A stretch of 63,951 nucleotides of DNA, filler included, from Nitrospinota bacterium (GCA_022562795.1; 3 parts of 3 records of this genome joined end to end with filler, not necessarily neighbours in it), one strand, 5' to 3'; shown: positions 1 to 31,140, counted from the whole stretch's first letter. Translations and numbers: made by a program. Notes: generated by a model not told the origin, from the sequence alone.

Positions 1-1946
1 GACTCCTCCACGCCCTCGGTAATAAGGAGGGCGCGGGCGGCCGTCGTCATGGCTTGATATGCCATTCGGGCTGCCTCGGTATAATTCCCTTGTTCGTACT
101 GGAGGTTGGCTTCAAAGAGCTCCCGCTCCGCCTCGCCCAGCTTCAGCTCCACCTCGGGGACCAATTGGCCGGCGCACTCGCCCGTTCCGACCCCCACGCT
201 GAACGGTTCCTCTTCACCCCAATCGACGTAGAAATCAGGCTGCTCGCTGATGTCAGGGACCTCCCGTAGATGGGCCAGCCCATCGCGGATGCCTTTCTTG
301 CCCACCCGCTCGGCCCACTCGTTAAAGCTCTCACCGTCGCTCCTCTCGTCCCGGTAGCGGCCCACCAGATGTTCTACCGTGGCGGGGATGTTCTTAGCCG
401 GGACCTTTAAGGTCGCCAGGCCGAACGAGTTGGCGTTTTCCGACTTCTGCCCACCCAAGAACAGATGATAGTTGGGCACCACGTTGCTGCCAACACGTTG
501 AGAGGAGCCGAAAAAGCCAATGTTGGCCACGTGGTGCTGACCGCAACTGTTCGGGCATCCGCTGACCTTGATGGAGAGGTCGCGGAACTCTTCGGGGAGG
601 GCCTCAGCTTCGGAGCCGTTGGAGGCAAGCATCTCGCGCAGCCTTAGCGCGAGGCTCTTAGAGGAAGTAATCCCCAGGATGCAGGTATCGGCGCCGGGGC
701 AGGCGGTGATGTCGAGCATCGTCTCGGCCCCCGGCTCGGACAGCCCCGCTTCGTCGAGCGCCTGGTAGAGCTCCCAGAGGTCGGATCGTCTCACCCAGCG
801 CATGAGGAAGTTCTGCTCTACGGTCGTCCGAAGGTTCTCGCCGTTGAATCTCCGAATAATGGAGGCCACGGCCCGAAGCTGTTTTGGATTTATATCGCCT
901 ATCGGCAAGGTGATGTAGACGGAGCAGAAGCCCTCTTGCTTCTGGGGGACGGCGTTGGTGGAGCACCATAGCTCGAAGGCTGGCGAGGTGCCCCCATTTC
1001 CGGGCGGCCCGTCGGGCAGAGCGGGCGACTCCTCCCCTCGCCGCACCACCAAAGGCCGTGAGAACCAGTAGGGATCGCTCCGGAGCACCTCAATCTCTTC
1101 ATGCACTTGACGGCGGAATTCCTCGATCCCAAGCTTCGCGACCAAAAACTTAAGCCGCGCCTTATTGCGGTTTTTCCGCTCGCCCCCTTTGTGAAAAACC
1201 GACAGAATCCCCGCTTGGTGCAGGATGATTTCCTCCGCAGGGAGGAACTCACTGTAGAGCTTGGCCGGATGGGGCTGCGCCCCAAGGCCACCACCGACCC
1301 ATACCTCGAAACCGTACTCGGTGCGGCCGTCGACCTCGCGGGTCCTGGCGATGTGGCCGATGTCGTGCATGTGGGCGAGCCCGCAGGGCTTGTCGGCGCA
1401 GCCGGAGAAGGCGATTTTGAACTTGCGGCCGAGCTGCTGGCATAGAGGATGTCGCAAGAAAGCATTCGTCGTAGCCCGAGCGATGGGCGTCACGTCAAAG
1501 GTTTCATCAGGGCAGACCCCGCTCAAGGAGCAGGCGGTGATGTTGCGGACCGTGTTGCCGCAGGCCTCTCTCGTTGTGAGCCCCACCGAAGCCAACCGGC
1601 GCATGATGGTTGGAACGTCCTCTAGCTGTACGAAGTGGTATTGAACGTCCTGCCTGGTGGTGACGTGGGCTAAGCCGTGGCCATGATTTTCGCTGATTTC
1701 GGCCAACATCTCGAGCTGGGTCGCGTTGAGCAGCCCTGAGGGAATCTTCACGCGCACCATATGGACGCCGGGCTGCCGCTGGCCGTAGATGCCGTGGTTC
1801 AGGCGGAAGTGCTTGAAATGCTCTTCCGATATTTTTCCCCGCTTCAAACGCTCGACCTCTACCTCGAAAATCTGAATCTCACGCTCAATCTCGGGCGCGA
1901 GCGCCTCTCTGTCTGAGGCAAAAAAAGAACGATGCTCCTCGCTCAT
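1..1946 (-). CDS. Siroheme/[4Fe-4S] nitrite/sulfite reductase with C-terminal helical (HEPN-like) extension; 3' end runs off window
   Basis: Absent from the ORF track. Manual translation from ATG 1946 (RBS AAGGAG) gives MSEEHRSFF...FRLNHGIYGQRQ...MVRVKIP...HVTTRQDVQ...REACGNTVRN...RKFKIAFSGC...CPGADTC...VSGCPNSCGQH, i.e. the CX5C and CX3C siroheme/Fe-S ligands. Confidence 0.9.
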   Translation of the reverse strand, partial: MSEEHRSFFASDREALAPEIEREIQIFEVEVERLKRGKISEEHFKHFRLNHGIYGQRQPGVHMVRVKIPSGLLNATQLEMLAEISENHGHGLAHVTTRQDVQYHFVQLEDVPTIMRRLASVGLTTREACGNTVRNITACSLSGVCPDETFDVTPIARATTNAFLRHPLCQQLGRKFKIAFSGCADKPCGLAHMHDIGHIARTREVDGRTEYGFEVWVGGGLGAQPHPAKLYSEFLPAEEIILHQAGILSVFHKGGERKNRNKARLKFLVAKLGIEEFRRQVHEEIEVLRSDPYWFSRPLVVRRGEESPALPDGPPGNGGTSPAFELWCSTNAVPQKQEGFCSVYITLPIGDINPKQLRAVASIIRRFNGENLRTTVEQNFLMRWVRRSDLWELYQALDEAGLSEPGAETMLDITACPGADTCILGITSSKSLALRLREMLASNGSEAEALPEEFRDLSIKVSGCPNSCGQHHVANIGFFGSSQRVGSNVVPNYHLFLGGQKSENANSFGLATLKVPAKNIPATVEHLVGRYRDERSDGESFNEWAERVGKKGIRDGLAHLREVPDISEQPDFYVDWGEEEPFSVGVGTGECAGQLVPEVELKLGEAERELFEANLQYEQGNYTEAARMAYQAMTTAARALLITEGVEE

Positions 1947-2291
1947 ATCCCCATCTCCTTCTTGAGAATAAATCTCCAGTCGGTCCAACAATCCGTCTGC
2001 TAGCTAGCACGGGCTCAAGATCGATGTGGAGTCCCCACGTTCTTCCTCACTATCAAGGCTGTCGATTGCACTGGTAACCTGGGCAGAGAAAGCACGTTAT
2101 TATGTGTATACCCTCTAACGAATCAGTGCAGTAGAGGCGCCGCAATGCGCAGCGATCGGACACGGAAACCCTAAGATTCTTAGCAACGCAAAACAAACCA
2201 TCGATGAGAGGCGTCATTCACCCTCCTCTATGGGCGGCCGCTCGTGTGGTGACACGAGGGCTCATGAATTTGGAAAAATGCATCGACCCTA

Positions 2292-2320
2292 TTGACATCA
2301 GATCTAAAGGCACTTATTAA
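2292..2320 (+). promoter_or_regulatory. Sigma70-like promoter for the Rrf2 gene
   Basis: TTGACA (2292-2297), 17 bp spacer, TATTAA (2315-2320), followed by tandem TATAGATAAA x2. Confidence 0.6.
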
Positions 2321-2374
2321 TATAGATAAATATAGATAAATCGATGAATAAATCAAGTATTAAATAAGGCTACC

Positions 2375-2860
2375 ATGATTTCTGCAACGTCCGAGCATGC
2401 TCTTCGTGCCATAGCCAGCATTGCTGCCGTGACCAATCCCACCTCCCCGGAAACCAGGGAGCCGATTTTGGCTCGCGACCTTTCCTCGAGAGCTGGGGTG
2501 CCCCTCAACTACCTCTCGAAAATCTTAGGAACCCTGAGCAGGGCGGGCATCCTGCAAGCGAGTCGTGGACGGGGCGGCGGATACCGTCTCGTCCGGTCCG
2601 CCGACCAGATCCCCCTCATCGACGTCGTCGAGCTGTTTGACGGGGTCACAGCCCGGCCGGACTGCTTTTTCGGAGGGGGTCGTAAGTGCTCCGACGATGA
2701 TCCCTGCACCGCGCATGATGCCTTTAAGCAGGTCCGGGAGCAGTACATAGATTTCCTTGAATCGACGACAATCGCCGATATCGCGGGCCCCACCTACGCG
2801 GACGGCGCGCCGGCCGGGGGGCTCCCTCCCTTGATCCGACAAGAAAATGCATTCTCTTGA
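2375..2860 (+). CDS. Rrf2 family transcriptional regulator (Fe-S binding, IscR/NsrR-like)
   Basis: wHTH with YLSKIL..L.RAG...S.RG.GGGY and three Cys (CFFGGGRKCSDDDPC). Confidence 0.92.
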   Translation: MISATSEHALRAIASIAAVTNPTSPETREPILARDLSSRAGVPLNYLSKILGTLSRAGILQASRGRGGGYRLVRSADQIPLIDVVELFDGVTARPDCFFGGGRKCSDDDPCTAHDAFKQVREQYIDFLESTTIADIAGPTYADGAPAGGLPPLIRQENAFS

Positions 2861-2871
2861 CTTAAGTCAAG
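2856..2871. promoter_or_regulatory. Perfect palindrome CTTGACTTAAGTCAAG, Crp/Fnr-type (TTGA-N6-TCAA) operator candidate
   Basis: Seen directly; identical copy at 21729-21744. Confidence 0.7.
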
Positions 2872-2982
2872 GCTCAAACGGGAGGGCGAACATACTTTTA
2901 TTGGAAGACCATAGTTGGAGCCATCCAGGTTGGCTCCTAATGAGGGTTCCGAGGTGAGAGCGAGAGCTCTTGGTTAGTAAAA

Positions 2983-3219
2983 ATGGGTACTTCTCGCCGC
3001 TTTGAGATTTTCCTGGACTGCCTGTGGGGCTTTCCGCTTCTCGCAGGCTTGCTCTTGATTCCGTTGAGCTTGATCACCTTAGATGCGTCGGGAGCGATTG
3101 GTGCTTCGGCCTTGTGGCTTCATCTCGTCTTGCTCGCCACGTTCGCCTACACCTTCAGCCTTCGACTCCGGCACCGATTTCCTTTGTTACAGCGAAAGAG
3201 GAAAAGTAATGAACTGTAG
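2983..3219 (+). CDS. Small hypothetical 2-TM membrane protein
   Basis: 78 aa with two hydrophobic stretches and a basic tail, first ORF of the run; weak RBS. Confidence 0.4.
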   Translation: MGTSRRFEIFLDCLWGFPLLAGLLLIPLSLITLDASGAIGASALWLHLVLLATFAYTFSLRLRHRFPLLQRKRKSNEL

Positions 3220-3286
3220 CGTAACTAGGCGTCGGGTGGCGAACAACCATGCGGATACGACTTATCACCCAGAGGGCAAAAGAAAG

Positions 3287-4414
3287 ATGAGGATCTTCCA
3301 GAGGTGCCTGCTTGAGCGACTGGTTGTGGCCGCCTGCATGGTGGCACTGCTTGGCGGGAGCGCTGCCTGGGGGGCCGAGAAGTATTCTCCTCTCGGCCCG
3401 CTTCCAGACCTGAAACAACCTGATTCGGCGAGGGTTGAGCTGGGGCGGTATCTCTTCTTCGATTCGCGGCTCTCGGGTGACACCGCCCTCAGCTGCGCCA
3501 GCTGCCACTTGCCGACCAAAGGTTGGACCGACGGCCTCCCGCTATCCAGAGCGTACCCGGGTTCCGAATACTTCCGAAACGCCAAGACCGTCCTCAACGC
3601 CGTCCACGCCGAGGTCTTATTCTGGGATGGCCGTCTCTCCTCCGACCCGTTTGAAACGCACGTCAGGGACCACCTCACCGAGAGCCACTTCATGAACATG
3701 GACGGGCGCCTCATGCAGGAGCGGATCAAGCAGATCCCAGAATACGTCAAGATGTTCAAGAACGCTTGGAATTCGGAGCCGTCTTTCGGGAAAATCCGCA
3801 ACTCAATCCGCGACTTTGAGAAGACCCTGGTCTCCCGGAACGTCCCCTTCGACAGGTTCATGAAGGGGGACAAAAGGGCGCTATCGGCCAAGGCCAAAAG
3901 AGGCTTGGCCCTATTCAAGGGCAAAGCAGGCTGCATGCGGTGCCACAACGGCGCTTATTTCTCCGACGGGAAGCCGTACAATCTTGGGGTTCCGACCAAC
4001 CCCGACATCGTAAAAAACCCCTTGCGTCACATCGGTATGCGCTCCTTCTTTCTGGGTATGGGGGTTCCAGGGTTTGAACACCTAACAGAGGACGTGGGCT
4101 ATTACACCGTCTCAAAGGTCGAGGCCGACAAGGGAAAGTTTGTGACCCCCACGCTCCGGGAATTATCCCGGACGGCGCCCTACATGCATAATGGGATGCT
4201 GAAGACCCTTGATGAGGTAATTAAGTTCTACGGCAGAGGTGGAGGAAAGAGTCCAAACAAGACGCCGTTGCTCAAACCACTTCGCCTCACCGCCAGCGAG
4301 AAGGCGGCTTTGGTGGAGTTTCTAAAGAGTCTCAGCGGGGATGAGGTTGTCGTCGCGGTTCCCGAGTTACCGAAATATGAGGTTATCAAAAACTGGCTCA
4401 AGGTAAAGAATTAA
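3287..4414 (+). CDS. idrP: Di-heme cytochrome c peroxidase/MauG family, IdrP-like (copy 1)
   Basis: Signal peptide, LG..LFFD.RLS, CASCH and CMRCH, TAPYMHNG; lies upstream of idrBA-like genes. Confidence 0.85.
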   Translation: MRIFQRCLLERLVVAACMVALLGGSAAWGAEKYSPLGPLPDLKQPDSARVELGRYLFFDSRLSGDTALSCASCHLPTKGWTDGLPLSRAYPGSEYFRNAKTVLNAVHAEVLFWDGRLSSDPFETHVRDHLTESHFMNMDGRLMQERIKQIPEYVKMFKNAWNSEPSFGKIRNSIRDFEKTLVSRNVPFDRFMKGDKRALSAKAKRGLALFKGKAGCMRCHNGAYFSDGKPYNLGVPTNPDIVKNPLRHIGMRSFFLGMGVPGFEHLTEDVGYYTVSKVEADKGKFVTPTLRELSRTAPYMHNGMLKTLDEVIKFYGRGGGKSPNKTPLLKPLRLTASEKAALVEFLKSLSGDEVVVAVPELPKYEVIKNWLKVKN

Positions 4415-4477
4415 TCGGGCTCGGATAGTAAAGGGGATGCGCAACAGCGTTTCGTCGACAGAGGAGAAGCAAAGCCC

Positions 4478-5629
4478 ATGAGAGTGCGATTTTGGATACT
4501 CATCCCAGTGCTCCTGGCTATCGTTTTGGGTCTCTTCCTGGCGCCCCGGCCTGACATCGCCACGGGGAAAGAACCCTTCCCGTCTCTCGGGCCGTTGGGG
4601 CCGGTACCCACCCCCCCGGACAATCCCACGACGCCGGCCAAAGTGGAATTGGGAAAGCTGCTCTTCTTTGATAACCGCCTCTCCGGCGATGGCAGCACTC
4701 CTTGCCTAAGCTGCCACGTCCCTCAAGTGGGCTGGGGGGACGGAGGGGACATATGTCACGGCTATCCCGGGACGAAGCACTGGCGTAACTGCCAAACGAT
4801 AGTCAATTCGGCGTATTACAATAAGCTGTTCTGGGCCGGCTCCTCCAAAAGCTTGGAGGCCCAGGCGGAGACGGCAGCAAGGGGAGCAGTGGCGGGCAAC
4901 GGGGAGCGTGATATGATGGAAGCCCGCCTCCTTCAGATCCCGGAATATGTCAAGCGGTTCAAGGAGGTCTTTGGGACACGCAGCCCCCATCTCAAGGACG
5001 CCTGGCGCGCCATCGCCGCCTTCGAGCGGACCATCGTTCAGCGAAACACCCCCTTCGACCGCTACATAAAGGGCGACAAGGGGGCGATGTCGGCAAAGGC
5101 CGTAAGGGGACTTGCCCTGTTTTCGGGTAAAGCCGGGTGCGTCCAGTGCCACAACGGCTCCCTCCTAACCGACCAGAAATACTACAATTTAGGCGTGCCA
5201 GAGAATCCCACCTTTCAGAGGGACGCCCAGCACCAGATTACCTTCCGGTTTGAGCAATACGCCAAGGGGGTTACCGAAGATATCTATCGGACGACGAAAA
5301 CCGACCTGGGTCTCTACTACCGGATGAAGCGCAAGGAGGATATGGGGAAGTTCCGGACTCCCTCCCTGCGGTATCTGGTCTACACCGCTCCTTATATGCA
5401 TAACGGGGTCTTTAGGACCCTCGAAGAAGTTATCAAGTTCTACAACAAGGGCGGTGGAGAAGATATCATCCATAGCCTATACGGGTTCAGTACAAAGACC
5501 AATAAAATCAAGCCACTCAATCTTACTGAAAACGAAAAGGGGGCGCTAAAGGCGTTCCTCGAGAGCTTGAGCGGAGAGCAAATCATCGTGAACCCTCCAA
5601 AGCTTCCCGAATACGCGGTCTATAAGTGA
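4478..5629 (+). CDS. idrP: Di-heme cytochrome c peroxidase/MauG family, IdrP-like (copy 2)
   Basis: Signal/TM segment, PPDNPTTPAKVELGK.LFFD.RLS, CLSCH and CVQCH, FRTPSLR, TAPYMHNG. Confidence 0.87.
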   Translation: MRVRFWILIPVLLAIVLGLFLAPRPDIATGKEPFPSLGPLGPVPTPPDNPTTPAKVELGKLLFFDNRLSGDGSTPCLSCHVPQVGWGDGGDICHGYPGTKHWRNCQTIVNSAYYNKLFWAGSSKSLEAQAETAARGAVAGNGERDMMEARLLQIPEYVKRFKEVFGTRSPHLKDAWRAIAAFERTIVQRNTPFDRYIKGDKGAMSAKAVRGLALFSGKAGCVQCHNGSLLTDQKYYNLGVPENPTFQRDAQHQITFRFEQYAKGVTEDIYRTTKTDLGLYYRMKRKEDMGKFRTPSLRYLVYTAPYMHNGVFRTLEEVIKFYNKGGGEDIIHSLYGFSTKTNKIKPLNLTENEKGALKAFLESLSGEQIIVNPPKLPEYAVYK

Positions 5630-5658
5630 TGAGCTGCGGGGAGAGGGGAAAAGGGACC

Positions 5659-6213
5659 ATGAATTCAGACCAAGCGCAAGAGAGACCCTGTATGACCAGG
5701 CGGCAGTTTCTGCTGGCCAGTGGGAGCGTTACCCTTACAACCGTCTTTCTGCCCTCGATTCCCGGCCTCCTAGGTCGGGCAGAGGCGGTCCCGGCGACGC
5801 TGACAAAATATCCGAAGAAAAAGGTCGGGAAGCTCAGCGCCTTGAAGACGGATGCGCCCAGGTACTTCAATTATCCCTTTAAAGATATGTATTCGCAGAA
5901 CATGCTCGTGAAATTGGGTGCCCCCGCATCGGGAGGCGTCGGGGCTGATCAAGATATCGTGGCCTTCAGCACCTTGTGCACCCACATGGGAGGACCCCTG
6001 GCCGGGAGATACAAGAGTCAAGATAAGGTCCTGGGGCCCTGCCCGCTCCACTTGACCACCTTTGACCTGACCCGGCACGGGATGGTCGTCGCCGGCCACG
6101 CCACCGAATCTCTGCCCCAGGTCGTCTTGGAGGTCCGGGGCGATACCATCTACGCCACGGGGATTCTGGGTCTGGTTTACGGCAAGCGCAATAACCTTGA
6201 TACGGGAAAGTAG
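5659..6213 (+). CDS. idrB: Rieske [2Fe-2S] small subunit of AioB/IdrB type, Tat-exported
   Basis: TRRQFLL Tat motif; CTHMG and CPLH Rieske ligands; GHATESLPQ motif. Confidence 0.88.
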   Translation: MNSDQAQERPCMTRRQFLLASGSVTLTTVFLPSIPGLLGRAEAVPATLTKYPKKKVGKLSALKTDAPRYFNYPFKDMYSQNMLVKLGAPASGGVGADQDIVAFSTLCTHMGGPLAGRYKSQDKVLGPCPLHLTTFDLTRHGMVVAGHATESLPQVVLEVRGDTIYATGILGLVYGKRNNLDTGK

Positions 6214-6254
6214 ATAGGGACCGTTATGGTCTTCCGGTGAGGAGGTAGGACATT

Positions 6255-8930
6255 ATGTCGGAACGGAAATACAAACGGCAGGACAAGGTCCCCTTGCCAC
6301 CGCCTGATGCGAAGGTGTTCACCACGGCCTGCGACTATTGCATTGTGGCGTGCGGGTATAAGGTCTACCGCTGGCCGGTGGGCAAGGAGGGGGGGCTCAA
6401 GGCCAAAGAAAACGCACTGGGCGTAGATTTTCCCGTCTCGCCGCTGAGCGGTAAGTGGGTTACCCCCAATATGCACAACGTGGTGAGGGCCGACGGACGC
6501 CTTCACAACGTTGTCGTCATTCCAGACGGCGATAGCAAGGTGGTCAATGTTGGCGGGACTCACAGCATCCGCGGGGGCTGTATCGCCCAAAAGGTCTTTA
6601 ACCCCGAAACGCCAACTAAGGATCGCCTGCAGCGTCCTCTCCTTCGGGTGGGGGGGAAGCTGACGCCGGTTTCGTGGGATACTGCCTTTGACATTATGGC
6701 CAAGGTCTCTAAGCACGTACTCGACACGCAAGGCGTCCATGCCTGGGCCATGAAGATGTTTTCCTACCATTATTATGAGAACACTTTCGCCTTGACAAAG
6801 TTGGCCTTTAGTTACATTGAAACACCGGCCTTTGCCTTTCACGACAATCCATCCGTGGCGCCCGACACCCCGGGGTTCCGGGATGTTGGATTTGACAACT
6901 TCTCAGCTTCATACGAAGACTGGTCCCTCGCCGACGTCCTCTACATCTCAGGGACCGATCCTTATGAGACCAAAACGGTCATCTTCACCCATTGGATTCT
7001 TAAAGGAATTAACACGCACAATATGAAATTGATCTACGCCCTCCCGCGCAAGACGACGGGCGTGGCTCATGCCGAGGCCACGGGGGGACTGCACCTATGG
7101 CTTATTCCCGGAACTGATACCGTGCTTCACATGGCCATAGCCCGGGTCATCTTGGAGAACGGATGGGAAGATAAGGAGTGGATTGCCCAGTTCACTAATA
7201 ATAAGTGGGGCACCGACTCCGGCTTTGGCCAGGGCACCCGGAACACACAGTGGCAGTGGCGAACCACGTGGGGCAAGCTCGAGACCAAGGGCTTTAAGGA
7301 CTACAAGGAGTGGATCCTGGCCCAGGAGGAGTCGAAGCTCGATGTCGCGGAGAAAATCACTGGGGTCCCCAGAGGCGACATCGTCCGGGCGGCGGAGATG
7401 ATGGCCAAGCCGCGGCCAGACGGGTCGCGCCCTAAGACCTCGATCGGAATCGAGAAGGGCAACTACTGGTCCAACAACTACCTAAACACCGCCTCGATCG
7501 GCTCCTTGGCATTGCTTTGCGGGGCGGGCAACAGGCCGGGCCAGATGGTCTCACGTTTCGGCGGCCACCAGAGGGGAGGCCGTAAAGGGGGCCGCTATCC
7601 CATGGAGAAGTCGCCGGAGAAGTACCCGGGCCGCCGCCGGAAATCTCTCGACCTCGACAGGTGGGTCGAGGCGGGCAATGTGCGGTTCTGCTGGTGCATT
7701 GGCACTACATGGGTTGGCTCCATGACGGCCTCTCAGGCCATGGAGGAGACTTTCAAACGCAGCACTGTTGCCAATCCGCATCAAATCAGGCGGAAAGATG
7801 CAAAGCATGCCGTTGAGGTTCTCAAGCAGCGTGTCGACAACGGCGGGATGATGCTCGTTTTCCAGGATATCTATCTACGCCAGCCGCTGGGTACGAAGTA
7901 TGCAGACCTGGTGCTGCCAGCGGCTACGTGGGGAGAAGAGGACTTCACCCGGTCCAACGGCGAGAGGAGAATTCGCCTTTATTCCAAGTTCTACGATGCG
8001 CCGGGGGAGTCGAAGCCTGATTGGTGGATTGCGGCCCAGTTTGCCAAGAAGATGGGCTCTAAGGGATTCAACTGGAAGGACTCCAACGAAGTCTTCGAGG
8101 AATCGGCCCGCTTCGGGCGCGGCTCCCGCACGGACTATTACCCCCTGGTCTGGCTCGCTAAAAAGAAGGGGATGAGGGCCCATGAGCTGCTTAGGAGCAT
8201 GGGGACTGAAGGTATCCAATGCCCTATCAGGTACGAAGACGGAAAGCTCGTTGGCACGAAGCGACTCCACGACTCCACCCTGAAACTGCCCGAGGGCGGG
8301 CCCGAGGGGCCCACAATCTGGCCCAAGTTCCTCACAGCCTTCAAATCCCAAACGGGCAAGGCCAATTTCATCAAGTCTCCCTGGAGTCTCTTTTCCGACT
8401 TTTACGAGTGGTTTAAGCCGAAGGGCGATGAGCTATGGATCACCAACGGCCGCATCAACGAGATTTGGCAGTCGGGTTACGACGATATGGAGCGGCGGCC
8501 ATACATCACCGAGCGATGGCCGGTCAACTTCATGGAAATCCACCCGGAGGACGCCGAGGCCCGGGGCATCGAAAGCGGGGATTGGGTGGCTGCCGAAAAC
8601 GATCGCGTTCCGGTCCAAGTCAGCGGGTTCTACGGCGTCCAACCCAACGACTTCACCTTTACGGAGCTGATGAAGGCAGGCCACATAAAGCTGACCAAGG
8701 CCAGGATTAACGCCGTGGCCTTAGTCACCCCAGCGGTCCGCAAGGGCGTGGCATGGATGTACTTCCTCGACCCCAAGCAGCCGGCCAACAGTTTAGTTGC
8801 GCGGGTGGTCGACCCCCTTACGAACAACTATCGCTTCAAGCTTGGGATGGGCCGGGTTCGAAAGACCGGCGAGTCACCCTACAAGCGGTCGTTGGAGGAA
8901 ATGTCCTTTGCGCGCCGGGATATTGCATAA
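6255..8930 (+). CDS. idrA: Molybdopterin oxidoreductase large subunit, AioA/IdrA family (iodate reductase-like)
   Basis: VPLPP..A...TTACDYCIVACGYKVYRWPVGKEGG, HSIRGG ([3Fe-4S] CX2CX3C...S); no Tat leader; HDNPS..PGFRD in place of the AioA HNRPAYNSE signature; flanked by two peroxidases. Confidence 0.85.
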   Translation: MSERKYKRQDKVPLPPPDAKVFTTACDYCIVACGYKVYRWPVGKEGGLKAKENALGVDFPVSPLSGKWVTPNMHNVVRADGRLHNVVVIPDGDSKVVNVGGTHSIRGGCIAQKVFNPETPTKDRLQRPLLRVGGKLTPVSWDTAFDIMAKVSKHVLDTQGVHAWAMKMFSYHYYENTFALTKLAFSYIETPAFAFHDNPSVAPDTPGFRDVGFDNFSASYEDWSLADVLYISGTDPYETKTVIFTHWILKGINTHNMKLIYALPRKTTGVAHAEATGGLHLWLIPGTDTVLHMAIARVILENGWEDKEWIAQFTNNKWGTDSGFGQGTRNTQWQWRTTWGKLETKGFKDYKEWILAQEESKLDVAEKITGVPRGDIVRAAEMMAKPRPDGSRPKTSIGIEKGNYWSNNYLNTASIGSLALLCGAGNRPGQMVSRFGGHQRGGRKGGRYPMEKSPEKYPGRRRKSLDLDRWVEAGNVRFCWCIGTTWVGSMTASQAMEETFKRSTVANPHQIRRKDAKHAVEVLKQRVDNGGMMLVFQDIYLRQPLGTKYADLVLPAATWGEEDFTRSNGERRIRLYSKFYDAPGESKPDWWIAAQFAKKMGSKGFNWKDSNEVFEESARFGRGSRTDYYPLVWLAKKKGMRAHELLRSMGTEGIQCPIRYEDGKLVGTKRLHDSTLKLPEGGPEGPTIWPKFLTAFKSQTGKANFIKSPWSLFSDFYEWFKPKGDELWITNGRINEIWQSGYDDMERRPYITERWPVNFMEIHPEDAEARGIESGDWVAAENDRVPVQVSGFYGVQPNDFTFTELMKAGHIKLTKARINAVALVTPAVRKGVAWMYFLDPKQPANSLVARVVDPLTNNYRFKLGMGRVRKTGESPYKRSLEEMSFARRDIA

Positions 8931-9056
8931 GAGCAACCTTGACCGTCGGAGGCTCACTGGATTCCTCACGGTGTGGGAGCCTTCGGATGGCAGAGATGCA
9001 GGTCAATGGACCGCTATGAGGATTATGTCGTTTATACCCACTTGGGAGGTGCGGCC

Positions 9057-12000
9057 ATGAGGAGAGGGATGACCCGACGGGAGTTTCTTCAGTGGGCTAG
9101 CGCTGCCGGCTTCGGTGCCTTCGTCGCCTCTGCCACCGACGCCTGGGGCCTTGATACGATTAAGAACCCCTTGGCGCACTATCCGAACCGCGGCTGGGAG
9201 AAGACGTATCGCGACATCTGGGACTACGACTCGCTCTTCACCTTCCTCTGCGCGCCCAACGATACGCATAACTGCATTCTAAACGCCTATGTTCGCTCTG
9301 GCGTGATGACCCGGATAGGCCCGACAATGGGCTACGGTAAAGCGACCGACCTTTACGGCAACCAGGCGAGCCACCGTTGGGACCCTCGGGTATGCCAGAA
9401 GGGGCTTGCGCTGACGCGTCGCTTCTACGGCGACCGGCGCGTGCGACACCCAATGGTCCGCGCGGGCTTCAAGCGGTGGGTGGAGGCAGGTTTCCCGCGT
9501 GGTGAGGACGGCCAGCCGCCGGCCGATTATTTCCAGCGCGGACGTGACGAGTGGGTGCGCGCCTCCCACGACGAGGCTGCGGCCATGGTCGCCTCGACCC
9601 TGAAGAACATTGCAGAGACCTACAGCGGCGAGAAGGGCGCAAGTCTGCTTCACGCCCAGGGCTATGACGAAGATATGATCGCCGCCATGAAGGGGGCCGG
9701 CACCCAGGCGCTCAAGTTCCGTGGCGGGATGCCGCTTCTTGGGATGACGCGCATCTTAGGCATGTATCGCATGGCCAACTCTTTGGCGTTGCTCGATGCC
9801 AAAATCAGGGGCGTCGGCCAGGATAAGGCTCTCGGCGGCCGTGGCTTCGATAACTACTCCTGGCACACAGACCTTCCCCCCGGACACCCAATGGTGACCG
9901 GCCAGCAGACGGTCGAGTTTGACCTAAGCGCCGTCGAGCACGCCAAGACCGCCATTGTTTGGGGCATGAACTGGATTAGCACCAAGATGCCAGACGCCCA
10001 CTGGCTGACCGAGGCGCGCCTCAAGGGGACGAAGATCGTTGTAATCGCCTGTGAGTACTCCTCCACGGCGAGCAAGGGTGACGAGGTGATAATCGTTCGT
10101 CCCGGCACGACGCCGGCGCTGGCCCTCGGACTGGCTGGCGTGCTCATACGGGAGAAACGCTACGACGCGGATTACGTCAAGAAATGGACCGACCTGCCGG
10201 TGCTGGTGCGCATGGACACTCTCAAGTACCTCCGGGCCGAGGAGGTCTTCGGCGGCGGTCCCGCACCGCTAAGGAATCAAACACGGGTCTTGCGCAAAGG
10301 TGAGAAGGCTCCTCCGCCCGGCGTTCAGCGTGAGCAGCTCATCCCCGAAGACCTCCGCAACGAGTGGGGCGACTACGTCTGGTGGGACCGCCGAACGAAA
10401 GCCCCGAAGCTCCTCACTCGAGATGAGGTTGGCAAAAAATCAGGGGTAGGCGACCCGCTCCTTGAGGGCTCCGTCAGGGTCACTCTAAAAGATGGATCGG
10501 AGGTCCGCTGCCGCCCGGTGTTCGACCTTGTGCGAGAGTATGTTGAGCATTTCGACCCCAAGACGGTGGAGGACCTCACCTGGGCCCCGGCGACGGCGGT
10601 CACATCCCTCGCCCGGCAGATTGCCAAGGAGCCCGGGACCACCCTCTTTGCGATGGGGATGGGCCCGAACCAGTTCTTTAACAACGATAATAAGGACCGC
10701 GCCGTCTTTCTCCTGGCGGCGCTGACCGGCAATGTCGGCAAGATTTCCGGAAACGTTGGCTCCTACGCGGGCAACTACCGCGTGGCCCTCTTCAACGGCC
10801 TGCCCCAGTACGTCGGCGAGAACCCCTTCGATATCGAGCTCGATCCCTCAAAGCCGGCCCGGCCCAAGAAGTTCTGGAAAGCTGAGTCAGCCCACTACTG
10901 GAACCACGAGGACAAGCCACTCCGGGTGGGCAAGCGCCTGCTGACCGGCGCCACGCACATGCCCACACCGACCAAGTCCCTCTGGTTCGCCAATGCGAAC
11001 TCCATCCTCGGCAACGTCAAGCACCACTACAACGTCGTAGTCAACGTGTTACCTAAGATGGAGATGATTTCGGTTCAGGATTGGTGGTGGACGGCCTCAT
11101 GCGAGTGGGCCGACGTCGTATTCGCGGCGGACTCCTGGGCGGAGCTCAAGCATCCCGACATGACCGCCTCGGTGACGAATCCATTCCTTACGGTCTTTCC
11201 GCGCACGCCTCTGCCGCGCGTTTTCGACACCATTGGGGACATTGAGATCTTGGCTCTCGTTGGCCGCAAGATGGCCGAGCTGACGGGGGACAATCGCTTC
11301 GACGACCACTGGCACTTCGTACGTGAGGGGCGGACCGACGTCTATCTCCAGCGGATTCTCGACCACTCCTCCAACACGAAGGGCTACCGGTTCACGGAGC
11401 TCGAGGAGAAGGCAAAGAAGGGGATACCCACCTTGATGATGAACCGGACCTACCCAAAGGCGGTGGGCTACGAACAGGCCGAGGAGTCGAGGCCCTGGTA
11501 CACCAAGACCGGACGCCTCGAGTTTTACCGCGAAGAGGACGAGTTCATCGAGGCGGGCGAGAATCTGCCGGTCCACCGCGAGCCGATCGACTCCACCTTC
11601 TACGAGCCGAACGTCATTGTCTCCGCGCCGTGTGAGGCCCTCCGGCCGGCCGGCCCGGAGGACTACGGGGTCTCTCCCGACGACCTCTCGAGCGAGACGC
11701 GCCAGGGGCGAAACGTAGTGAAATCCTGGGCCGAAATGAGCCGCTCGCACCATCCGCTGGCCAAGGACGGCTATAAGTTCATCTTCCACACGCCCAAGTT
11801 TCGCCACGGCGCCCACACCATGCCTGTCGATACCGACATGGTCGCCATGCTCTTCGGCCCCTTCGGCGACATCTATCGCCACGATAAGCGAATGCCATTT
11901 GTGGCTGAGGGTTACGTTGACATGAACCCGGACGACGCCAAGGACTTGGGGGTTGAGGACGGCGATTACGTCTGGGTTGACGCCGACCCGAGCGACAGAC

Positions 12001-12515
12001 CGTTCAGGGGTTGGCAGAAGAACAAGCGAGATTATGAGTTCTCGCGCCTGCTTTGCCGGGCCCGCTACTATCCCGGCACGCCGCGCGGGGTCACGCGCAT
12101 GTGGTTCAACATGTACGGGACTACCCCGGGCTCGAGGGAGGGGCACAAGACCCGGCCCGACGGGCTGGCGAAAAACCCGAAGACCAACTACCAGGCGATG
12201 TTCCGCTCGGGCTCACACCAGTCGGCCACTCGAGGGTGGCTGAAGCCCACTTTGATGACCGACTCGCTGGTGCGCAAGGGTGTCTTGGGCCAGGTCATCG
12301 GTAAGGGGTTCGTCCCCGACGTTCACTGTCCCACCGGCGCCCCGCGCGAGGCGTTTGTGAAAATCACCAAGGCCGAGCCGGGTGGCATCGGCGGAGAGGG
12401 CCTGTGGCGTCCCGCGAAGCTCGGCTATCGCCCTCGCTACGAAAGCAAGAAGATGAAGAAATACATCAAGGGGGCATTCATTAAGCAAGGCAAGGGCGAG
12501 GGAGGTAAAAGCTAA
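9057..12515 (+). CDS. nxrA: Periplasmic type II DMSO-reductase family alpha subunit, NXR/NarG-like (related to Nitrospira/anammox-type NxrA)
   Basis: RBS GGAGGT; Tat [15 protein letters not shown]...RVCQKG FS0 motif (C-D-C-C); [11 protein letters not shown] with Mo-ligand Asp; ~1150 aa. Direction and substrate not determinable. Confidence 0.82.
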
Positions 12516-13651
12516 TGCCGAACGTTCGTAATTGGCAGATCGGGCGGGATATGCCCTATCCCTATGAGGAGGTGCGGCCAAAGAAGCAGTTCGCAGGGGT
12601 TTTTGACATCAACAAGTGCATTGCCTGCCAGACCTGTACCCTCGCCTGCAAGACCACCTGGACGTCGGGAAAGGGCCAGGAGTACATGCTCTGGAACAAC
12701 GTGGAGACGAAACCATACGGCTCTCATCCATTAGGGTGGGACGTGCGAATCCTAAACGAGCTCGGCCCCCAAGAGTGGGACGGCGACAAGTACAAGGGGC
12801 GCACCATTTTCGAGGCGGCTCCTCCCGGAGAGCAGGTGCTCGGTTGGAAACCTGAGGATCTGGATTACGCCCACCCGAACGTCGGCGAAGACGACTCCGT
12901 CGGCAAGGTCGAGAAGGGGCTACACCTTCACGCGCCCCACATGAACTGGTTCTTCTACCTGGCCAAAACGTGCATGCATTGCACCTACCCCGCTTGCCTC
13001 GCCTCCTGCCCGCGCCAATCGATCTACAAGCGGCCCGAGGACGGCATCGTCTTGATAGACCAGGACCGTTGTCGAGGCTACCGAGAGTGCGTGAAGGGCT
13101 GCCCGTACAAGAAGGCCTACTACAACCCGATGACGGGGACCTCCGAGAAGTGCATTGGCTGCTATCCCAAGCACGATGTGAGTGGGCCAAAGGAGGCGCC
13201 GCAGTGCTTCGTCACCTGCATCGGGAAGATTCGGTGTGCCGGCTGGATCTCGCGGCCGGAGAAGGCTCGGGAAGACAACCCCATCGACTACCTCGTCCAC
13301 TTCCGCAAGGTCGCACTTCCGCTTTACCCCCAGTTCGGTCTCGAGCCGAACATGTACTACATCCCCCCGATTCACGTTCCCAAGCCCTTCTTGCGCCAGA
13401 TGTTCGGCCCGGGAGTTGACCACGCCATCGAAACCTACCGTAAGATACCCGACGACAAAGACCTGGCCGGCCTGCTGACGCTCTTCGGCTCCACTCCCCT
13501 GGTTTTCCCGCGGTGGAGGCGGAAGGGGGACACGGTCTTCGGGCTCGACGAGGACGGCAGCGAGATCGTGCGGGTGCCGATCACCGAGCCGGTCCACATC
13601 CGGGTCGCCTTTGATGCGACCCACGGTGTGGTGCGGACTAATATCCCATGA
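12515..13651 (+). CDS. nxrB: Fe-S beta subunit (NxrB/NarH-like)
   Basis: MPNV.NWQIGR.M.YPYEE N-terminus; [45 protein letters not shown]...CFVTC. Confidence 0.88.
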
Positions 13652-13664
13652 GGAGGCTGACGCC

Positions 13665-14528
13665 ATGCGACGATTAACCTGTCCTGTCGCCCTTCTGGTG
13701 CTTCTAGTTACGGTTGGGGCGCCCTTCGCCGTCGCTACACCCGAGGCTGCCGCCGAGGTAGTCGCCCTCCGGCGCGGTGTCCTTCCGGCCGATCCCGGTG
13801 ATGTCGCCTGGCGCAAGGCTCCAATGCATGTGGCGCCCCTAGTCCCGCAAAATCTGGTCGCGCCGAGGCTGATGGAGCCCTCGACCAAGGAGGTCCGGGT
13901 GCAAGCGATGACCGATGGAAACCGGGTTGCGTTCCGGCTCGCCTGGGCTGATTCGACTAATGACGACCTCCCTGGAGCAAAGCGCTTTACCGACGCCTGT
14001 GCCGTTATGCTTCCGCAGGACGCCATGGCCCCGGTCCCCTCTCCCATGATGGGCGCTGCCGGGACCCCGGTCGAAATAACCTACTGGTCGGCCTTCTGGC
14101 AGGCGGCGCTTGATGGTCGTGGCGATACGATCAAGGACATCTACCCCGGCGCGGCGGTGGACCACTATCCCTTCGAGGCCCCCTCGCTGAAGCCGGGCTC
14201 GAAAGAGCAGAGGGCGATGGCGATGAGATACGCTCCGGCCCGCGCCCTCGGCAATCGCCGGGTAGGGCCGCGTGAACGCCCGGTCGAGGACCTTGTGGCC
14301 GGGGGGCCGGGAACCATTACCCGGGCGGGTACGACCAAGTCCAACGGCCACGGTAGCCGGACCGAGGAAGGCTGGGCGGTCGTCATCTCCCGTCCCCTAA
14401 CGAAGGGCCTTCGCCCCGGGAGCCAGTCGCATGTTCAATTTGCCGTTTGGAATGGGTCTCATGGCGAGGTGGGCTCGCGCAAGATGTGGTCGGGCTGGAT
14501 TCCTCTACGCATCAAGGAGGATAGGTAG
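13665..14528 (+). CDS. Periplasmic heme-b gamma subunit (ethylbenzene dehydrogenase gamma/DOMON-like)
   Basis: RBS GAGGAGG, Sec signal, F.DA.AV..P, P.PMMG, FAVWNG...E.G.RK; position after alpha and beta. Confidence 0.8.
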   Translation: MRRLTCPVALLVLLVTVGAPFAVATPEAAAEVVALRRGVLPADPGDVAWRKAPMHVAPLVPQNLVAPRLMEPSTKEVRVQAMTDGNRVAFRLAWADSTNDDLPGAKRFTDACAVMLPQDAMAPVPSPMMGAAGTPVEITYWSAFWQAALDGRGDTIKDIYPGAAVDHYPFEAPSLKPGSKEQRAMAMRYAPARALGNRRVGPRERPVEDLVAGGPGTITRAGTTKSNGHGSRTEEGWAVVISRPLTKGLRPGSQSHVQFAVWNGSHGEVGSRKMWSGWIPLRIKEDR

Positions 14529-14530
14529 CC

Positions 14531-15127
14531 ATGGCTCGCCCTGACGCTCCGGAGGTTCAGGAATTCTTGGCTGAGGCGGCGGAGTGGCGCCTTATAGGTC
14601 TGCTGTTGGAGCGTCCTCGCTCCGGTTGGGAGGACGAGGTTAAGAGCCTTGGCAGCGAAGTGCTGGACGAGCCTCTTCGGGCGGCGGCCGAAGCTGCCCG
14701 GGAGGCCACCGAGGGAACCTACCTGGGCCTTCTGGGGCCGGGCGGCTTCGTCTCCCCCCGTGAGGTCGCCTACCGTCCCCAGGAGGACCCCGGTAAGATC
14801 ATGTCTGACCTGGCGGCTTTTTACGAAGCTTTCGCCTTCTCCCCCAAGGCCGAGGACCCGCTCGACCACATTGCGGTGGAGGCGGGCTTCGCTGGCTACC
14901 TCCGGTTGAAGGAATTATATGCCTTGGCGCGAAGAGATGAGAAGGGGGCCGCCACGACCGCCGAAGCACACCGCCACTTTCTGGAGGAGCACCTGGGAAC
15001 CTTCGTCGAGCCCTTTGCCCAAGGCCTGGAGCCTTCCGGGGTTTCCTACCTCGTTGCAGCCGCGCGTGGGCTCCTCGAACGAGTAAAGAAATCTTTGGAC
15101 GAAACGGCCGGCGTCTCCGAGCCATAA
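14531..15127 (+). CDS. TorD/DmsD-family molybdoenzyme maturation chaperone
   Basis: FYEAFAF...[13 protein letters not shown] and FLEEHL motifs. Confidence 0.85.
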
Positions 15128-15198
15128 GACGCCGCTCTGGGTCTATTATGGTCAATATGGATCATCAAGAACCTGTACCCCGCATGAAAGCGATCGAC

Positions 15199-16410
15199 AT
15201 GAATCTGCCCATTTACATGGACAATAACGCCACAACGCCTGTCGACGGGCGGGTCCTGGAGGCGATGCTTCCCTACTTTTGCGAGGAGTACGGTAACGCC
15301 GCAAGCCGAAACCATTCATTTGGTTGGCGGGCTGAGGAGGCCGTAGGGCGGGCCAGGGAGCAGGTCGCCCGGCTGATAGGAGCCAAGCCCAGGGAAATTA
15401 TCTTCACGAGCGGGGCGACCGAGAGCGACAACCTCGCTTTGAAGGGCGTGGCCGAGATGTATCGGGAGAAGGGCGATCACATCATCACCCAGGTGACCGA
15501 GCATAAAGCGGTGCTAGATTCGGCCAAGCGTCTCGAGCGGCAGGGCTTCGAGGTCACCTATCTGCCGGTCGACCGAGACGGGCTGGTAGACCCGGACGAC
15601 GTGCGGCGTGCGCTCAGGGAGACGACGATTCTCATCTCCATCATGGCTGCCAATAACGAGATTGGGGTGGTGCAGCCGTTGGAGGAGATCAGCCGTATCG
15701 CGAAGGAGCGTGGAGTGCTGTTTCACAGCGACGCGGCCCAGGCCGCAGGCAAGGTGCCGGTGGACGTGGAAGCCTGGGGGGTGGATCTTGTGAGTCTGAG
15801 CGCCCACAAGATGTATGGGCCTAAGGGGGTGGGCGCGCTCTACGTTCGGCGTCGAAACCCCCGGGTACGGCTCTCCCCGATGATGGACGGCGGCGGCCAC
15901 GAGCGTGGCATGCGTAGCGGTACCCTCGACGTTCCGGGCATAGTTGGGTTCGGAGCGGCTTGCGAGCTGGCTTACCGGGAGATGGAAGCGGAGGCCGAGC
16001 GACTTCGGTTCCTCAGGGACCGGCTGGAAGGGGGCATCCTGTCCCACGTAGAGGAGGTCTACCGTAACGGCCATGCCGAGCGGCGCCTGCCGGGCACGAG
16101 CAACCTCTCGTTCGCCTACGTGGAGGGCGAAAGCCTGATGATGGGCCTCAACGAGATTGCCGTCTCCAGCGGCAGCGCCTGTACCTCGGCCATCCTCGAG
16201 CCCTCGCACGTCCTGAGGGCGCTCGGAGTGGGCGAGGAGCTAGCCCATTCCTCCATCCGTTTCAGCCTCGGTCGGTTCAACACCGAAGAGGAGGTCGATT
16301 ACGTCATTCAGCGAGTTAAGGAAACAGTGGAGCGGCTCCGAGAGATGTCGCCCCTCTACGAGATGGTCAAAGAGGGGATCGACCTCTCGAGCGTTCAGTG
16401 GCAGACCTGA
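15199..16410 (+). CDS. iscS: Cysteine desulfurase IscS (start may be 15148 or 15184)
   Basis: [19 protein letters not shown] (PLP Lys), SSGSACTS. Confidence 0.97.
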
Positions 16411-16434
16411 GGCAGGCAAGGCGGGAACGCAATC

Positions 16435-16857
16435 ATGGCATACAGCGACAAGGTCATCGACCACTACAAAAACCCCCGCAATGTAGGCTCTTTCCCAAAG
16501 GAGGAGCTCGGCGTGGGGACGGGTATCGTCGGGGCCCCAGAGTGTGGCGATGTGATGAAGCTCCAGATCAAGGTCAACGAAGAGACCGAGGTCATCGAAG
16601 AGGCCCTGTTTAAGACCTTCGGTTGCGGCAGCGCCATCGCCTCCTCAAGCCTGGTGACCGAGTGGGTCAAGGGCAAGAGCATCGAGGAAGCTCTCAGTAT
16701 CAAGAACACGCAAATCGTCAACGAGCTGAGCCTTCCGCCGGTCAAGATTCACTGCTCTGTTCTTGCCGAAGACGCCATTAAGGCCGCCATTGCTGATTAC
16801 AAGAAGAAGATCGATCAGGCAGGCAACGAAGCTCATGGCCACCATCGAGACCAATAA
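16435..16857 (+). CDS. iscU: Fe-S scaffold IscU
   Basis: MAYSDKVIDHY.NPRNVG, GAPECGD, FGCGSA, LPPVKIHCS. Confidence 0.97.
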   Translation: MAYSDKVIDHYKNPRNVGSFPKEELGVGTGIVGAPECGDVMKLQIKVNEETEVIEEALFKTFGCGSAIASSSLVTEWVKGKSIEEALSIKNTQIVNELSLPPVKIHCSVLAEDAIKAAIADYKKKIDQAGNEAHGHHRDQ

Positions 16858-17545: not shown

Positions 17546-17551
17546 CCCGCT

Positions 17552-19828: not shown

Positions 19829-20043
19829 AACTCTACTGGCAAGACGCCGAAGAAATTGCCATCGAGCTTCACGAAAAATTCCCCGAGGTTGATCCTCTGG
19901 ACGTGCGCTTCACCGACCTCCACCGCTGGGTCTGCGAGCTTCCAGACTTTGAAGACAAGCCCAGTAAGAGCACCGAGGGCATCCTTGAGGCCATCCAGAT
20001 GGCCTGGTGGGAAGAGTGGAAGGAGGCCCAAGTGGGCCGGTAG
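19825..20043 (+). CDS. iscX: Fe-S assembly protein IscX (YfhJ)
   Basis: LYWQD..EIAIEL....P.VDP..VRFTDLHRWV..L.DF.D.P..S.E.ILEAIQ.AW. Confidence 0.93.
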   Translation: MKLYWQDAEEIAIELHEKFPEVDPLDVRFTDLHRWVCELPDFEDKPSKSTEGILEAIQMAWWEEWKEAQVGR

Positions 20044-21744: not shown

Positions 21745-21835
21745 CATGCTACCCGCGGAGAATCATATATTAAATAGAGCTATCATATCCATCCCCAAGG
21801 GGTTCTTGACCGGGACATATAGAGGAGACCAACGT

Positions 21836-22588: not shown

Positions 22589-22589
22589 C

Positions 22590-31040: not shown

Positions 31041-31140
31041 NNNNNNNNNNNNNNNNNNNNNNNNNNNNNNNNNNNNNNNNNNNNTTAATTAATTAANNNN
31101 NNNNNNNNNNNNNNNNNNNNNNNNNNNNNNNNNNNNNNNN
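31041..31140. other. Artificial contig-joining linker
   Basis: N44-TTAATTAATTAA-N44 (stops in all six frames). Confidence 0.97.

Follow-up and report, generated by a model that had tools for sequence, protein, structure and literature searches.

Introduction

Candidatus Nitrosediminicolota was described by Zhao, Jorgensen and Babbin in 2024 (PMC11009272) as a lineage of marine sediments with genomes of 1.6-2.5 Mb and a guanine-cytosine (GC) content of ~60%, in which nxrABCD, the genes of a nitrite oxidoreductase (NXR), are preceded by genes labelled 'thiosulfate reductase and arsenite oxidase' and followed by iscS, iscU and hscAB. The same gene order is found in the DNA studied here, a stretch of 63,951 nt from a Nitrospinota bacterium (GCA_022562795.1), hereafter called the window, which for this reason most likely belongs to Ca. 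Nitrosediminicolota or to a close lineage. We report that the published 'arsenite oxidase' is re-annotated as an enzyme of the dissimilatory iodate reductase (Idr) type, that the NXR genes which follow it form an insertion or deletion (indel) within one genus, and that a second same-strand case occurs in Methylomirabilales.

An Idr was experimentally shown in Denitromonas IR-12 (PMC8692401). The four-gene composition, the kinship with the arsenite oxidase AioAB and the periplasmic location are shared by this system and the module of the window; the gene order, likened here by description, is A-B-P1-P2 in the former and P-P-B-A in the latter. The hosts of the experimentally shown Idr are heterotrophic Proteobacteria (PMC8692401). 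A closer likeness is offered by Ca. Methylomirabilis iodofontis (locus L013, PMC10989891), whose idrP2-P1-B-A genes stand in the same order as those of the window, with the same types of signal reported for their products (the general secretory pathway, Sec, for the P proteins and twin-arginine translocation, Tat, for B). Its authors put its IdrA among the iodate reductases. This A subunit is 67% identical to that of the window and a nearest neighbour of it in the tree presented below, and the host belongs to a different phylum. In Ca. M. iodofontis, iodate reduction is a genome inference only; the 10.7-kb contig, which ends at idrA, shows neither NXR-like nor isc genes. The arsenite oxidase AioAB itself (1G8K, 4AAY) has the same architecture, namely a large subunit with a 3Fe-4S cluster and Mo-bis(molybdopterin guanine dinucleotide) (Mo-bisMGD) and a Tat-exported Rieske small subunit. 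However, AioAB belongs to a separate clade and differs in motifs adjacent to the active site, and in the window two peroxidase genes adjoin the pair.

As regards the second module, NXR-ABC of Kuenenia stuttgartiensis (7B04, PMC8387239) is a soluble alpha/beta/gamma complex like the one encoded in the window. They have in common the 3Cys/1Asp ligands of the Fe-S cluster FS0, an Asn for the substrate, an Asp as Mo ligand and, in the gamma subunit, a Met as haem ligand. The relation is nevertheless distant, and the window contains neither NXR-T nor tubule genes and no anammox context.

Which oxidant is used when nitrite is oxidised anaerobically in oxygen-poor waters and sediments is debated, and iodate is one candidate (cited in PMC8114937). 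With an idr-type module recognised before the NXR of a widespread sediment lineage, this idea can be tied to a definite candidate organism and its genes, and the putative iodate reducers gain a new lineage of phylum rank. Furthermore, because one genus varies in NXR, counting the whole lineage as nitrite oxidisers, or blaming incompleteness where NXR is missing, may be wrong. The significance is limited in that neither module is of a new family, the gene order has been published before, and no known mechanism would conserve energy in a direct chain between the modules.

Results and Discussion

Gene organization of the locus

Positions 1-31040 of the window correspond to a single contig of the source genome (G000), a draft of 2.15 Mb in 84 contigs that is 97% complete. 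Runs of N at 31041-31140 and 59617-59716 split the window into three contigs, the remainder beyond them being other contigs, and the locus is contiguous with 1-31040 alone. Between 2375 and 19828, all credible genes lie on the + strand, in the 5' to 3' order Rrf2 regulator, two CCP_MauG peroxidases, Rieske protein, AioA-like A subunit, nxrA-B-C-D, iscS, iscU, hscB and a hscA-ferredoxin fusion. Domain calls were taken from Pfam and family scores from NCBIfam with its model cut-offs. The gene list of the initial annotation (two di-haem peroxidases, a Tat Rieske protein, an AioA-like Mo subunit and an NXR-like set, all on the + strand) was confirmed, and the co-oriented run was found to extend past 15127, from iscS to the hscA-ferredoxin fusion, up to 19828.

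The same annotation had known of no described operon with this pairing. On this point it has to be corrected, the gene order being already in PMC11009272 with the first enzyme labelled arsenite oxidase. In the main text of that paper, the words iodate, idr and peroxidase have no occurrence; in its six searchable supplement files (text only, Fig. S4 being an image), iodate, aioA and 'arsenite oxidase' are likewise absent and 'peroxidase' appears in a COG table only. No paper linking idr and NXR in one genome was found in the literature searched, in which the papers on the lineage were covered by the text of PMC11009272 alone.

Both peroxidases and NxrC carry export signals of the Sec type, and the Rieske protein and NxrA each display a Tat motif. 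Inspection of signals and hydropathy revealed no membrane anchor in the proteins of either complex. These export signals fit two complexes that would both be soluble and periplasmic. The GC contents of the idr, nxr and isc blocks fall between the 19th and 80th percentiles of the genome and their tetranucleotide distances between the 76th and 85th; compared with G000, these two measures of composition gave no sign of recent transfer in the three blocks and are uninformative.

Assignment of the upstream module to the Idr type

The regulator and the upstream module consist of the following genes:

2375-2860, + strand: Rrf2-family regulator (Pfam Rrf2, E 6e-27; C-x8-C-x5-C-x2-H cluster-ligand pattern)
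3083-4414, + strand: idrP-like di-haem peroxidase, copy 1 (CCP_MauG, E 1e-41; CxxCH at residues 138 and 284)
4478-5629, + strand: idrP-like di-haem peroxidase, copy 2 (CCP_MauG, E 5e-44; CxxCH at residues 76 and 221)
5626-6213, + strand: idrB-like small subunit, AioB-type Rieske [2Fe-2S] protein (TIGR02694, 124 bits for a cut-off of 96)
6255-8930, + strand: idrA-like Mo catalytic subunit (TIGR02693, 476 bits for a cut-off of 359)

The Rrf2 regulator stands at the head of the entire co-oriented run. It scored below the NCBIfam equivalog cut-offs for IscR, NsrR and RirA, and it is 99.4% identical to the copy of a same-genus genome. In the first peroxidase, a hydrophobic segment was located at residues 71-99; the true start is likely Met69 at 3287, which would yield a Sec-type signal peptide. 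The second peroxidase displays a hydrophobic signal peptide at its N-terminus. G000 contains two CCP_MauG genes in total, both of them in this module, and a single NxrA-like gene, so that the arrangement does not look like one produced by chance. The Rieske subunit carries the Tat motif MTRRQFLL at residue 23 and a CTH...CPLH (CxH...CxxH) motif. In the A subunit, an N-terminal Rieske_3 (3Fe-4S) domain is followed by the Molybdopterin and Molydop_binding domains; this subunit has no signal peptide of its own and would be co-exported with B.

The idrABP1P2 composition claimed earlier was thus borne out, with the order P-P-B-A. An AioA-like Mo subunit with an N-terminal 3Fe-4S domain adjoins an AioB-like Tat Rieske protein, and the two cytochrome c peroxidase genes of the cluster are situated directly upstream of this pair. 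Following Reyes-Umana et al. (PMC8692401), two peroxidases in the neighbourhood delimit idr from aio, the aio neighbourhoods described there being without them.

Relatives of the A subunit were collected by a word-indexed search, which gave 1539 relatives among 6612 candidates; the best 120 of these 1539 are 59-99% identical and belong to many phyla. When species-representative genomes were considered, 590 of 601 pattern matches were found to encode a relative, and the best 80 loci were kept. At least 3.3 kb of upstream sequence was available for 70 of these 80 loci, and 67 of them have, upstream and on the same strand, a Rieske gene together with two or more peroxidase genes (the three exceptions are L020, L042 and L051).

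A quick maximum-likelihood tree (short search) was calculated from 42 rows comprising the window, 24 named loci and 17 cluster representatives (near-full-length sequences of 50% clusters, picked from 150 listed). The A subunit of the window was placed in a 4-row clade with Ca. M. iodofontis and two others, supported at 97% by the Shimodaira-Hasegawa-like approximate likelihood ratio test (SH-aLRT). This clade is nested in a 26-row clade which contains all 24 named-locus rows, while the canonical AioA sequences make up a clade of their own (100% support). The latter was labelled by its scores to PDB chains: P0278 gave 1288 bits to 4AAY and P0266 gave 754 bits to A. faecalis AioA. Compared with the 750-1290 bits of such true AioA representatives, the A subunit of the window reached 305-312 bits to the solved AioA chains (1G8K, 4AAY). 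In the alignment, the HNRP...E and GGHQEG motifs of AioA, which we take from the A. faecalis structure to line the arsenite site, become HDNP...D and GGHQRG in the window; HD.P / GGHQRG is the signature of the clade around it, as against HNRP / GGHQEG in AioA. By tree, PDB scores and motifs, the A subunit thus groups apart from canonical AioA. On these sequence comparisons it is of the idr type, in the IdrA clade, and not a canonical AioA.

The NXR-like gene set

Four genes constitute the downstream module:

9057-12515, + strand: nxrA-like alpha subunit, a type II dimethyl sulfoxide (DMSO) reductase (928 bits to Kuenenia NXR-A, 7B04, over residues 5-1143)
12515-13651, + strand: nxrB-like Fe-S beta subunit (Fer4_11, E 4.5e-25; TIGR03478, 243 bits, below the subfamily cut-off)
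13611-14528, + strand: nxrC-like haem b gamma subunit (EB_dh, E 6e-22; 7B04 chain C, E 1.5e-15)
14531-15127, + strand: nxrD, NarJ-type chaperone (Nitrate_red_del, E 1e-10; TIGR03482)

The ATG of nxrA at 9057, upstream of which GGGAGGTG is found, leads into the Tat motif MTRREFLQ and leaves a gap of 126 nt to idrA; a longer open reading frame (ORF) starting at GTG 8973 is probably not used. For nxrC, a start at 13665 is likely and would yield a signal peptide. NxrA is ~45% identical to Kuenenia NXR-A over the first alignment block, and its matches to perchlorate reductase, ethylbenzene dehydrogenase (EBDH) and NarG are far weaker. In EBDH, the residue at the position of the substrate Asn is Ile. 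This nxrA is the single NxrA-like gene of G000.

The ligands were mapped on the residues named by Chicano et al. (PMC8387239), C115 lying outside the mapped part. FS0 ligands were identified at C65, D69 and C73, the substrate Asn at residue 68 and the Mo ligand at Asp272, so that C65, N68, D69, C73 and D272 of the window align with C67, N70, D71, C75 and D275 of Kuenenia. In NxrC, the Met155 haem ligand is aligned; the Lys305 position is occupied by Arg with a Lys one residue on, and a Lys haem ligand is probable. As the initial annotation had proposed, the downstream set is a complete Tat-exported complex of the NXR type with ligands of the NXR and nitrate reductase (NAR) type: the exported alpha subunit combines the Asp Mo ligand, the substrate Asn and the FS0 motif, and the Fe-S beta subunit, the EB_dh gamma subunit and the NarJ-type chaperone are encoded in one operon. 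The NCBIfam models for type II subfamilies scored below their cut-offs.

Since the Kuenenia enzyme works in both directions (PMC8387239), the sequence does not fix the direction of catalysis. The NxrA of the lineage is reported to be nearest to those of Nitrotoga and of nitrite-oxidising Chloroflexota (PMC11009272). In the 33 genomes of the phylum around the Nitrospinaceae-labelled locus L018, no NxrA was detected at E<=1e-100. The members of the NxrA cluster are named 'molybdopterin-dependent oxidoreductase' or 'nitrate reductase alpha subunit' alone, and they stem from metagenome-assembled genomes (MAGs).

The idrA-nxrA junction and the NXR indel

Two further features are needed to describe the boundary between the modules:

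8931-9056, + strand: idrA-nxrA spacer of 126 nt (homology to the NXR-less relative stops at 8942)
8943-15182, + strand: indel block of ~6.2 kb, made up of the spacer and nxrABCD (missing as one piece from the same-genus genome)

The initial annotation had pointed to the spacer as the place where a terminator, a separate promoter or a misjoin might be found. Scans of 8931-9056 detected no terminator-like or sigma-70-like site, in scans where such sites are no commoner than in shuffles and where the promoter type of the host may differ from the sigma-70 model; the fold of the spacer is ordinary (z-score -0.46). As for a misjoin, both ends of the NXR block are bridged by contigs of three other studies. 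X12 record 1 spans 5500-9146 and X2 record 17 reaches 9053, while X2 record 21 and X3 record 31 span 14807/14827-15224, from nxrD into iscS. Because these contigs cross the idrA stop and the nxrD-iscS boundary, the junction is real and not a misjoin. In one sediment RNA library, short contigs matched idrA (97.6-98% identity) and nxrA (99%), with more divergent ones on iscS/iscU. They are a weak hint of expression, as DNA carry-over is possible, and they do not amount to a single transcript.

The locus was compared with that of a same-genus genome (contig L001; G001, the same as G006; 85% complete). By blastn, window 1-8942 aligned without gaps to L001 700-9641 at 95.3% identity, and window 15207-20031 to L001 9674-14497 at 87.7% identity. 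In L001, iscS starts within ~25 nt of idrA. No NxrA-like gene was found in this genome, nor in a third genome of the GTDB phylum (96% complete). As the alignment breaks cleanly and no NxrA-like gene is present, the spacer and nxrABCD constitute a single ~6.2-kb indel. In PMC11009272, the missing NXR of some Ca. Nitrosediminicolota genomes was ascribed to incompleteness; in contrast, the clean NXR-less junction of L001 demonstrates that true absence occurs too.

No convincing direct or inverted repeats flank the ends of the cassette, the only similarity being a loose AACCT(T/G)(G/T)ACC (10 nt) at both. Owing to this and to the lack of a compositional anomaly, insertion and deletion were not distinguished.

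Comparison of the idr genes with their same-genus copies gave, for idrA, a ratio of non-synonymous to synonymous divergence (dN/dS) of 0.021 with 99.7% amino-acid identity and, for the two idrP genes and idrB, ratios of 0.12-0.17. The idr genes are intact in both genomes. Since purifying selection is strong and the genes are intact in both, the module is maintained with or without NXR. Synonymous divergence amounts to 0.024 for Rrf2, 0.069 for idrA, 0.14-0.21 for the Rieske and peroxidase genes and 0.33 for the nitrite/sulfite reductase gene. Farther downstream, identity to L001 is 87.7% in the isc genes and 80% in the radical SAM region, and returns to 95% at 22566-24010. This mosaic of divergence across 1-24010 suggests that the region has undergone recombination between lineages.

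Neighbourhoods of related NXR and idr genes

The closest relatives of the NXR-like set were found at 79 metagenome loci (L093-L171), whose alpha subunits are 72-79% identical to that of the window. The ABCD order is kept in all loci that reach far enough. Not one of the 79 contains idr genes; 69 of them extend 1.5 kb or more upstream, and 43 extend 6 kb or more. The usual upstream genes encode instead a multihaem cytochrome c (54 loci), a cytochrome b (46), a GltD-like FAD/Fe-S protein (42), a Rieske protein (27) and an Rrf2 regulator (10).

At such loci these five genes usually precede the NXR genes on the same strand, e.g. L096:3732-10001 and L125:4362-9979, the GltD-like Fe-S protein being FAD/NAD(P)-binding and the multihaem cytochrome c having 550-630 aa. 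The set gives the impression of a Rieske/cytochrome b complex that is joined to NXR and includes an NAD(P)-linked subunit.

The usual NXR partner set was not found in the window or in G000, where the best match to the multihaem cytochrome c scored 25 bits.

Seen from the idr side, NXR-like alpha or beta genes occur within 10 kb at 4 of the 80 loci (56 of the 80 have at least 4 kb downstream). At L021, a Methylomirabilales MAG, idrP-P-B-A, an Rrf2 gene and an NxrA-like gene follow each other on one strand at 6902-17042. This NxrA-like protein is 55% identical to the alpha subunit of the window and gives 848 bits to 7B04, and the contig ends within the operon; in the same genome, another NxrA-like copy (L087) is preceded by an Rrf2 gene of its own. 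In the other cases, an NXR-like gene is located 6.3 kb downstream of idr (L011) or on the opposite strand (L032 and L033).

Proposed working of the locus and alternative explanations

We consider it reasonably probable that the run from Rrf2 to iscSU-hscBA harbours, in tandem, two separately evolved, soluble, periplasmic molybdoenzyme modules which meet only through the shared cytochrome c pool. By analogy with its family, the idrP-P-B-A module (3083-8930) would reduce iodate with electrons drawn from periplasmic cytochrome c and led over the Rieske centre and the 3Fe-4S cluster, and the two idrP-like peroxidases would clear a reactive by-product. In the nxrABCD module (9057-15127), electrons would leave or enter through haem b of NxrC. 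The two modules would owe their adjacency to a single event at the idrA/iscS junction, be it an insertion or a deletion, and not to evolution as a unit. Read-through transcription from the Rrf2 end is likely because the genes have the same orientation and are separated by short spacers; the isc context fits, as both modules need Mo-bisMGD, Tat export and many Fe-S clusters. NXR might feed the cytochrome c pool, which would be drained by a haem-copper oxidase with O2 or, when O2 is scarce, by Idr with iodate. In aerobic marine bacteria, idr is described as being used under oxygen limitation (PMC11445184).

Several points weigh against this proposal. Neither the verified IdrA of Pseudomonas sp. 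SCT and of Denitromonas IR-12 nor a named NxrA of nitrite-oxidising bacteria is represented in the trees, so that the clade labels rest on the M. iodofontis locus, on the PDB scores and on published statements. As the same-genus genome is 85% complete, its absence of NXR is less certain genome-wide than at the locus. The NXR cassette is without its usual partner genes, and its redox partner could in principle be Idr. Finally, L021 and the three looser cases hint at a favoured, not an accidental, neighbourhood.

A more intimate coupling may be envisaged, in which a dedicated nitrite:iodate oxidoreductase pathway would pass electrons from NXR to IdrBA, either by way of NxrC and a soluble carrier or without an intermediate, and oxidise nitrite without O2. 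The modules indeed share a strand, and the 126 nt that separate them show no terminator-like site; both would be soluble and periplasmic; the cassette lacks the Rieske, cytochrome b and multihaem c partner genes of its relatives; and L021 presents a second same-strand run in another phylum. Contigs 98-99% identical to idrA and nxrA in a single sediment RNA library point weakly in the same direction, with the reservation about DNA carry-over made above, and iodate has been proposed as an oxidant of nitrite in oxygen-deficient waters (Babbin 2017, cited in PMC8114937). It is mainly the fact that 4 of 80 loci exceeds the rate for random neighbours which keeps this idea alive. Electron flow from nitrite to iodate would be downhill and is thermodynamically possible, without obvious energy conservation. 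The iodate/iodide couple reportedly has a potential of ~+0.72 V. For nitrite/nitrate, a value of +0.42 V is given (PMC8387239). Because both half-reactions would be periplasmic, the protons cancel and no charge crosses the membrane; judging from the export signals, no known mechanism would then generate a proton motive force, and a direct chain would not by itself support growth. Moreover, strong selection acts on idr in the same-genus relative, where NXR is missing, idr is found at none of the 79 closest NXR loci, and iodate added to anoxic samples of oxygen-deficient zones (ODZ) gave no nitrite oxidation (PMC8114937). Dedicated coupling is thus unlikely, on account of the missing energy conservation, the NXR-less relative and the 0 of 79 loci. 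Nor is the hub of the initial annotation upheld as a dedicated, co-evolved unit of two enzymes, the NXR block being present or absent as one piece within a genus and idr being absent from those loci. That idrP-P-B-A and nxrABCD are transcribed as one unit, so that iodate oxidises nitrite without oxygen from NXR through cytochrome c to Idr in an abundant uncultured sediment lineage, is a long shot. If true, the iodate-driven anaerobic oxidation of nitrite that has been proposed would for the first time be given a genetic basis, and the independent juxtaposition at L021 would mark the same trait.

It is also improbable, in our view, that both enzymes are periplasmic terminal reductases, for nitrate and iodate, fed by quinol via a membrane complex and cytochrome c in an island of anaerobic respiration. 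The ligand set is common to NXR and NAR, Idr is a reductase in all organisms tested (PMC8692401, PMC11445184) and nitrate-reducing phenotypes are indicated among relatives in a tree legend of PMC11009272. However, the latter paper argues for nitrite oxidation from the few transporters for organic substrates, the rTCA cycle (reductive tricarboxylic acid cycle) and the oxic oligotrophic habitat, and the Met/Lys-type ligation of haem b in NxrC is tied to a high redox potential in Kuenenia NXR (PMC8387239). The label given both by the automatic annotation and in PMC11009272, by which the A/B pair would be an arsenite oxidase delivering As(III) electrons to cytochrome c beside NXR, appears very unlikely. 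It is true that the cut-offs of TIGR02693 and TIGR02694 are exceeded and that, of the four residues which we take to form the arsenite site of AioA, three are aligned with His196, Arg434 and His438. Nevertheless, the low scores to solved AioA, the separate clade and the changes from HNRP...E to HDNP...D and from HQEG to HQRG speak against this function, as do the two adjoining peroxidases that separate idr from aio (PMC8692401). Lastly, an artefact of assembly or binning is hardly credible. G000 is a draft in 84 contigs and the contigs of other runs tend to break near 8927-9146, but contigs of three studies cross into the spacer or nxrA and over the nxrD-iscS boundary, the composition of the blocks is unremarkable for the genome, and the same order has been published for several genomes (PMC11009272).

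The isc operon and other flanking genes

The tandem modules are followed by genes for Fe-S cluster assembly:

15148-19828, + strand: iscS, iscU, hscB and hscA-ferredoxin (IscS, 660 bits; IscU, 217 bits; HscB; HscA, 722 bits; fdx_isc)

The real start of iscS is possibly at 15183. This set is the only complete isc set found in G000. A second iscS copy (G000:C58:19320-20525), 86% identical to that of the window, is accompanied by neither iscU nor hscBA, and the same-genus genome has a lone second iscS too (77%). In the other family of the phylum (L182), Rrf2 is situated ~800 nt from iscS-iscU, without idr. In the window and in L001, it looks as if respiratory genes had parted an operon for Fe-S assembly between Rrf2 and iscS. 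The last gene of the set (17552-19828, 758 aa) is a fusion of HscA with an ISC-type [2Fe-2S] ferredoxin, the fdx_isc match covering residues 617-711; hscA and fdx are more usually separate genes.

Just downstream of the isc set and of a TIGR04053 radical SAM gene, 21746-22588 encodes a ScdA/hemerythrin protein for the 'repair of iron centres', which together with the Rrf2 regulator recalls nitrosative-stress regulons of the NsrR type. A chlorite-dismutase-family gene elsewhere in G000 (58 bits) was not used as evidence because this family also holds enzymes of haem biosynthesis. Upstream of the locus, an ORF on the - strand at 3-1991, open at the start of the contig, encodes a nitrite/sulfite reductase (NIR_SIR) with an extension on its N-terminal side that weakly matches HEPN at residues 618-662; this HEPN-like stretch may be part of an adjacent gene. 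On the - strand at 21182-21616, a 144-aa ORF matches the first third of cytochrome oxidase subunit I (COX1) alone (44 bits). The ORF represents a fragment or else a small protein in its own right, and a full COX1 gene is present on another contig of G000 (G000:C45).

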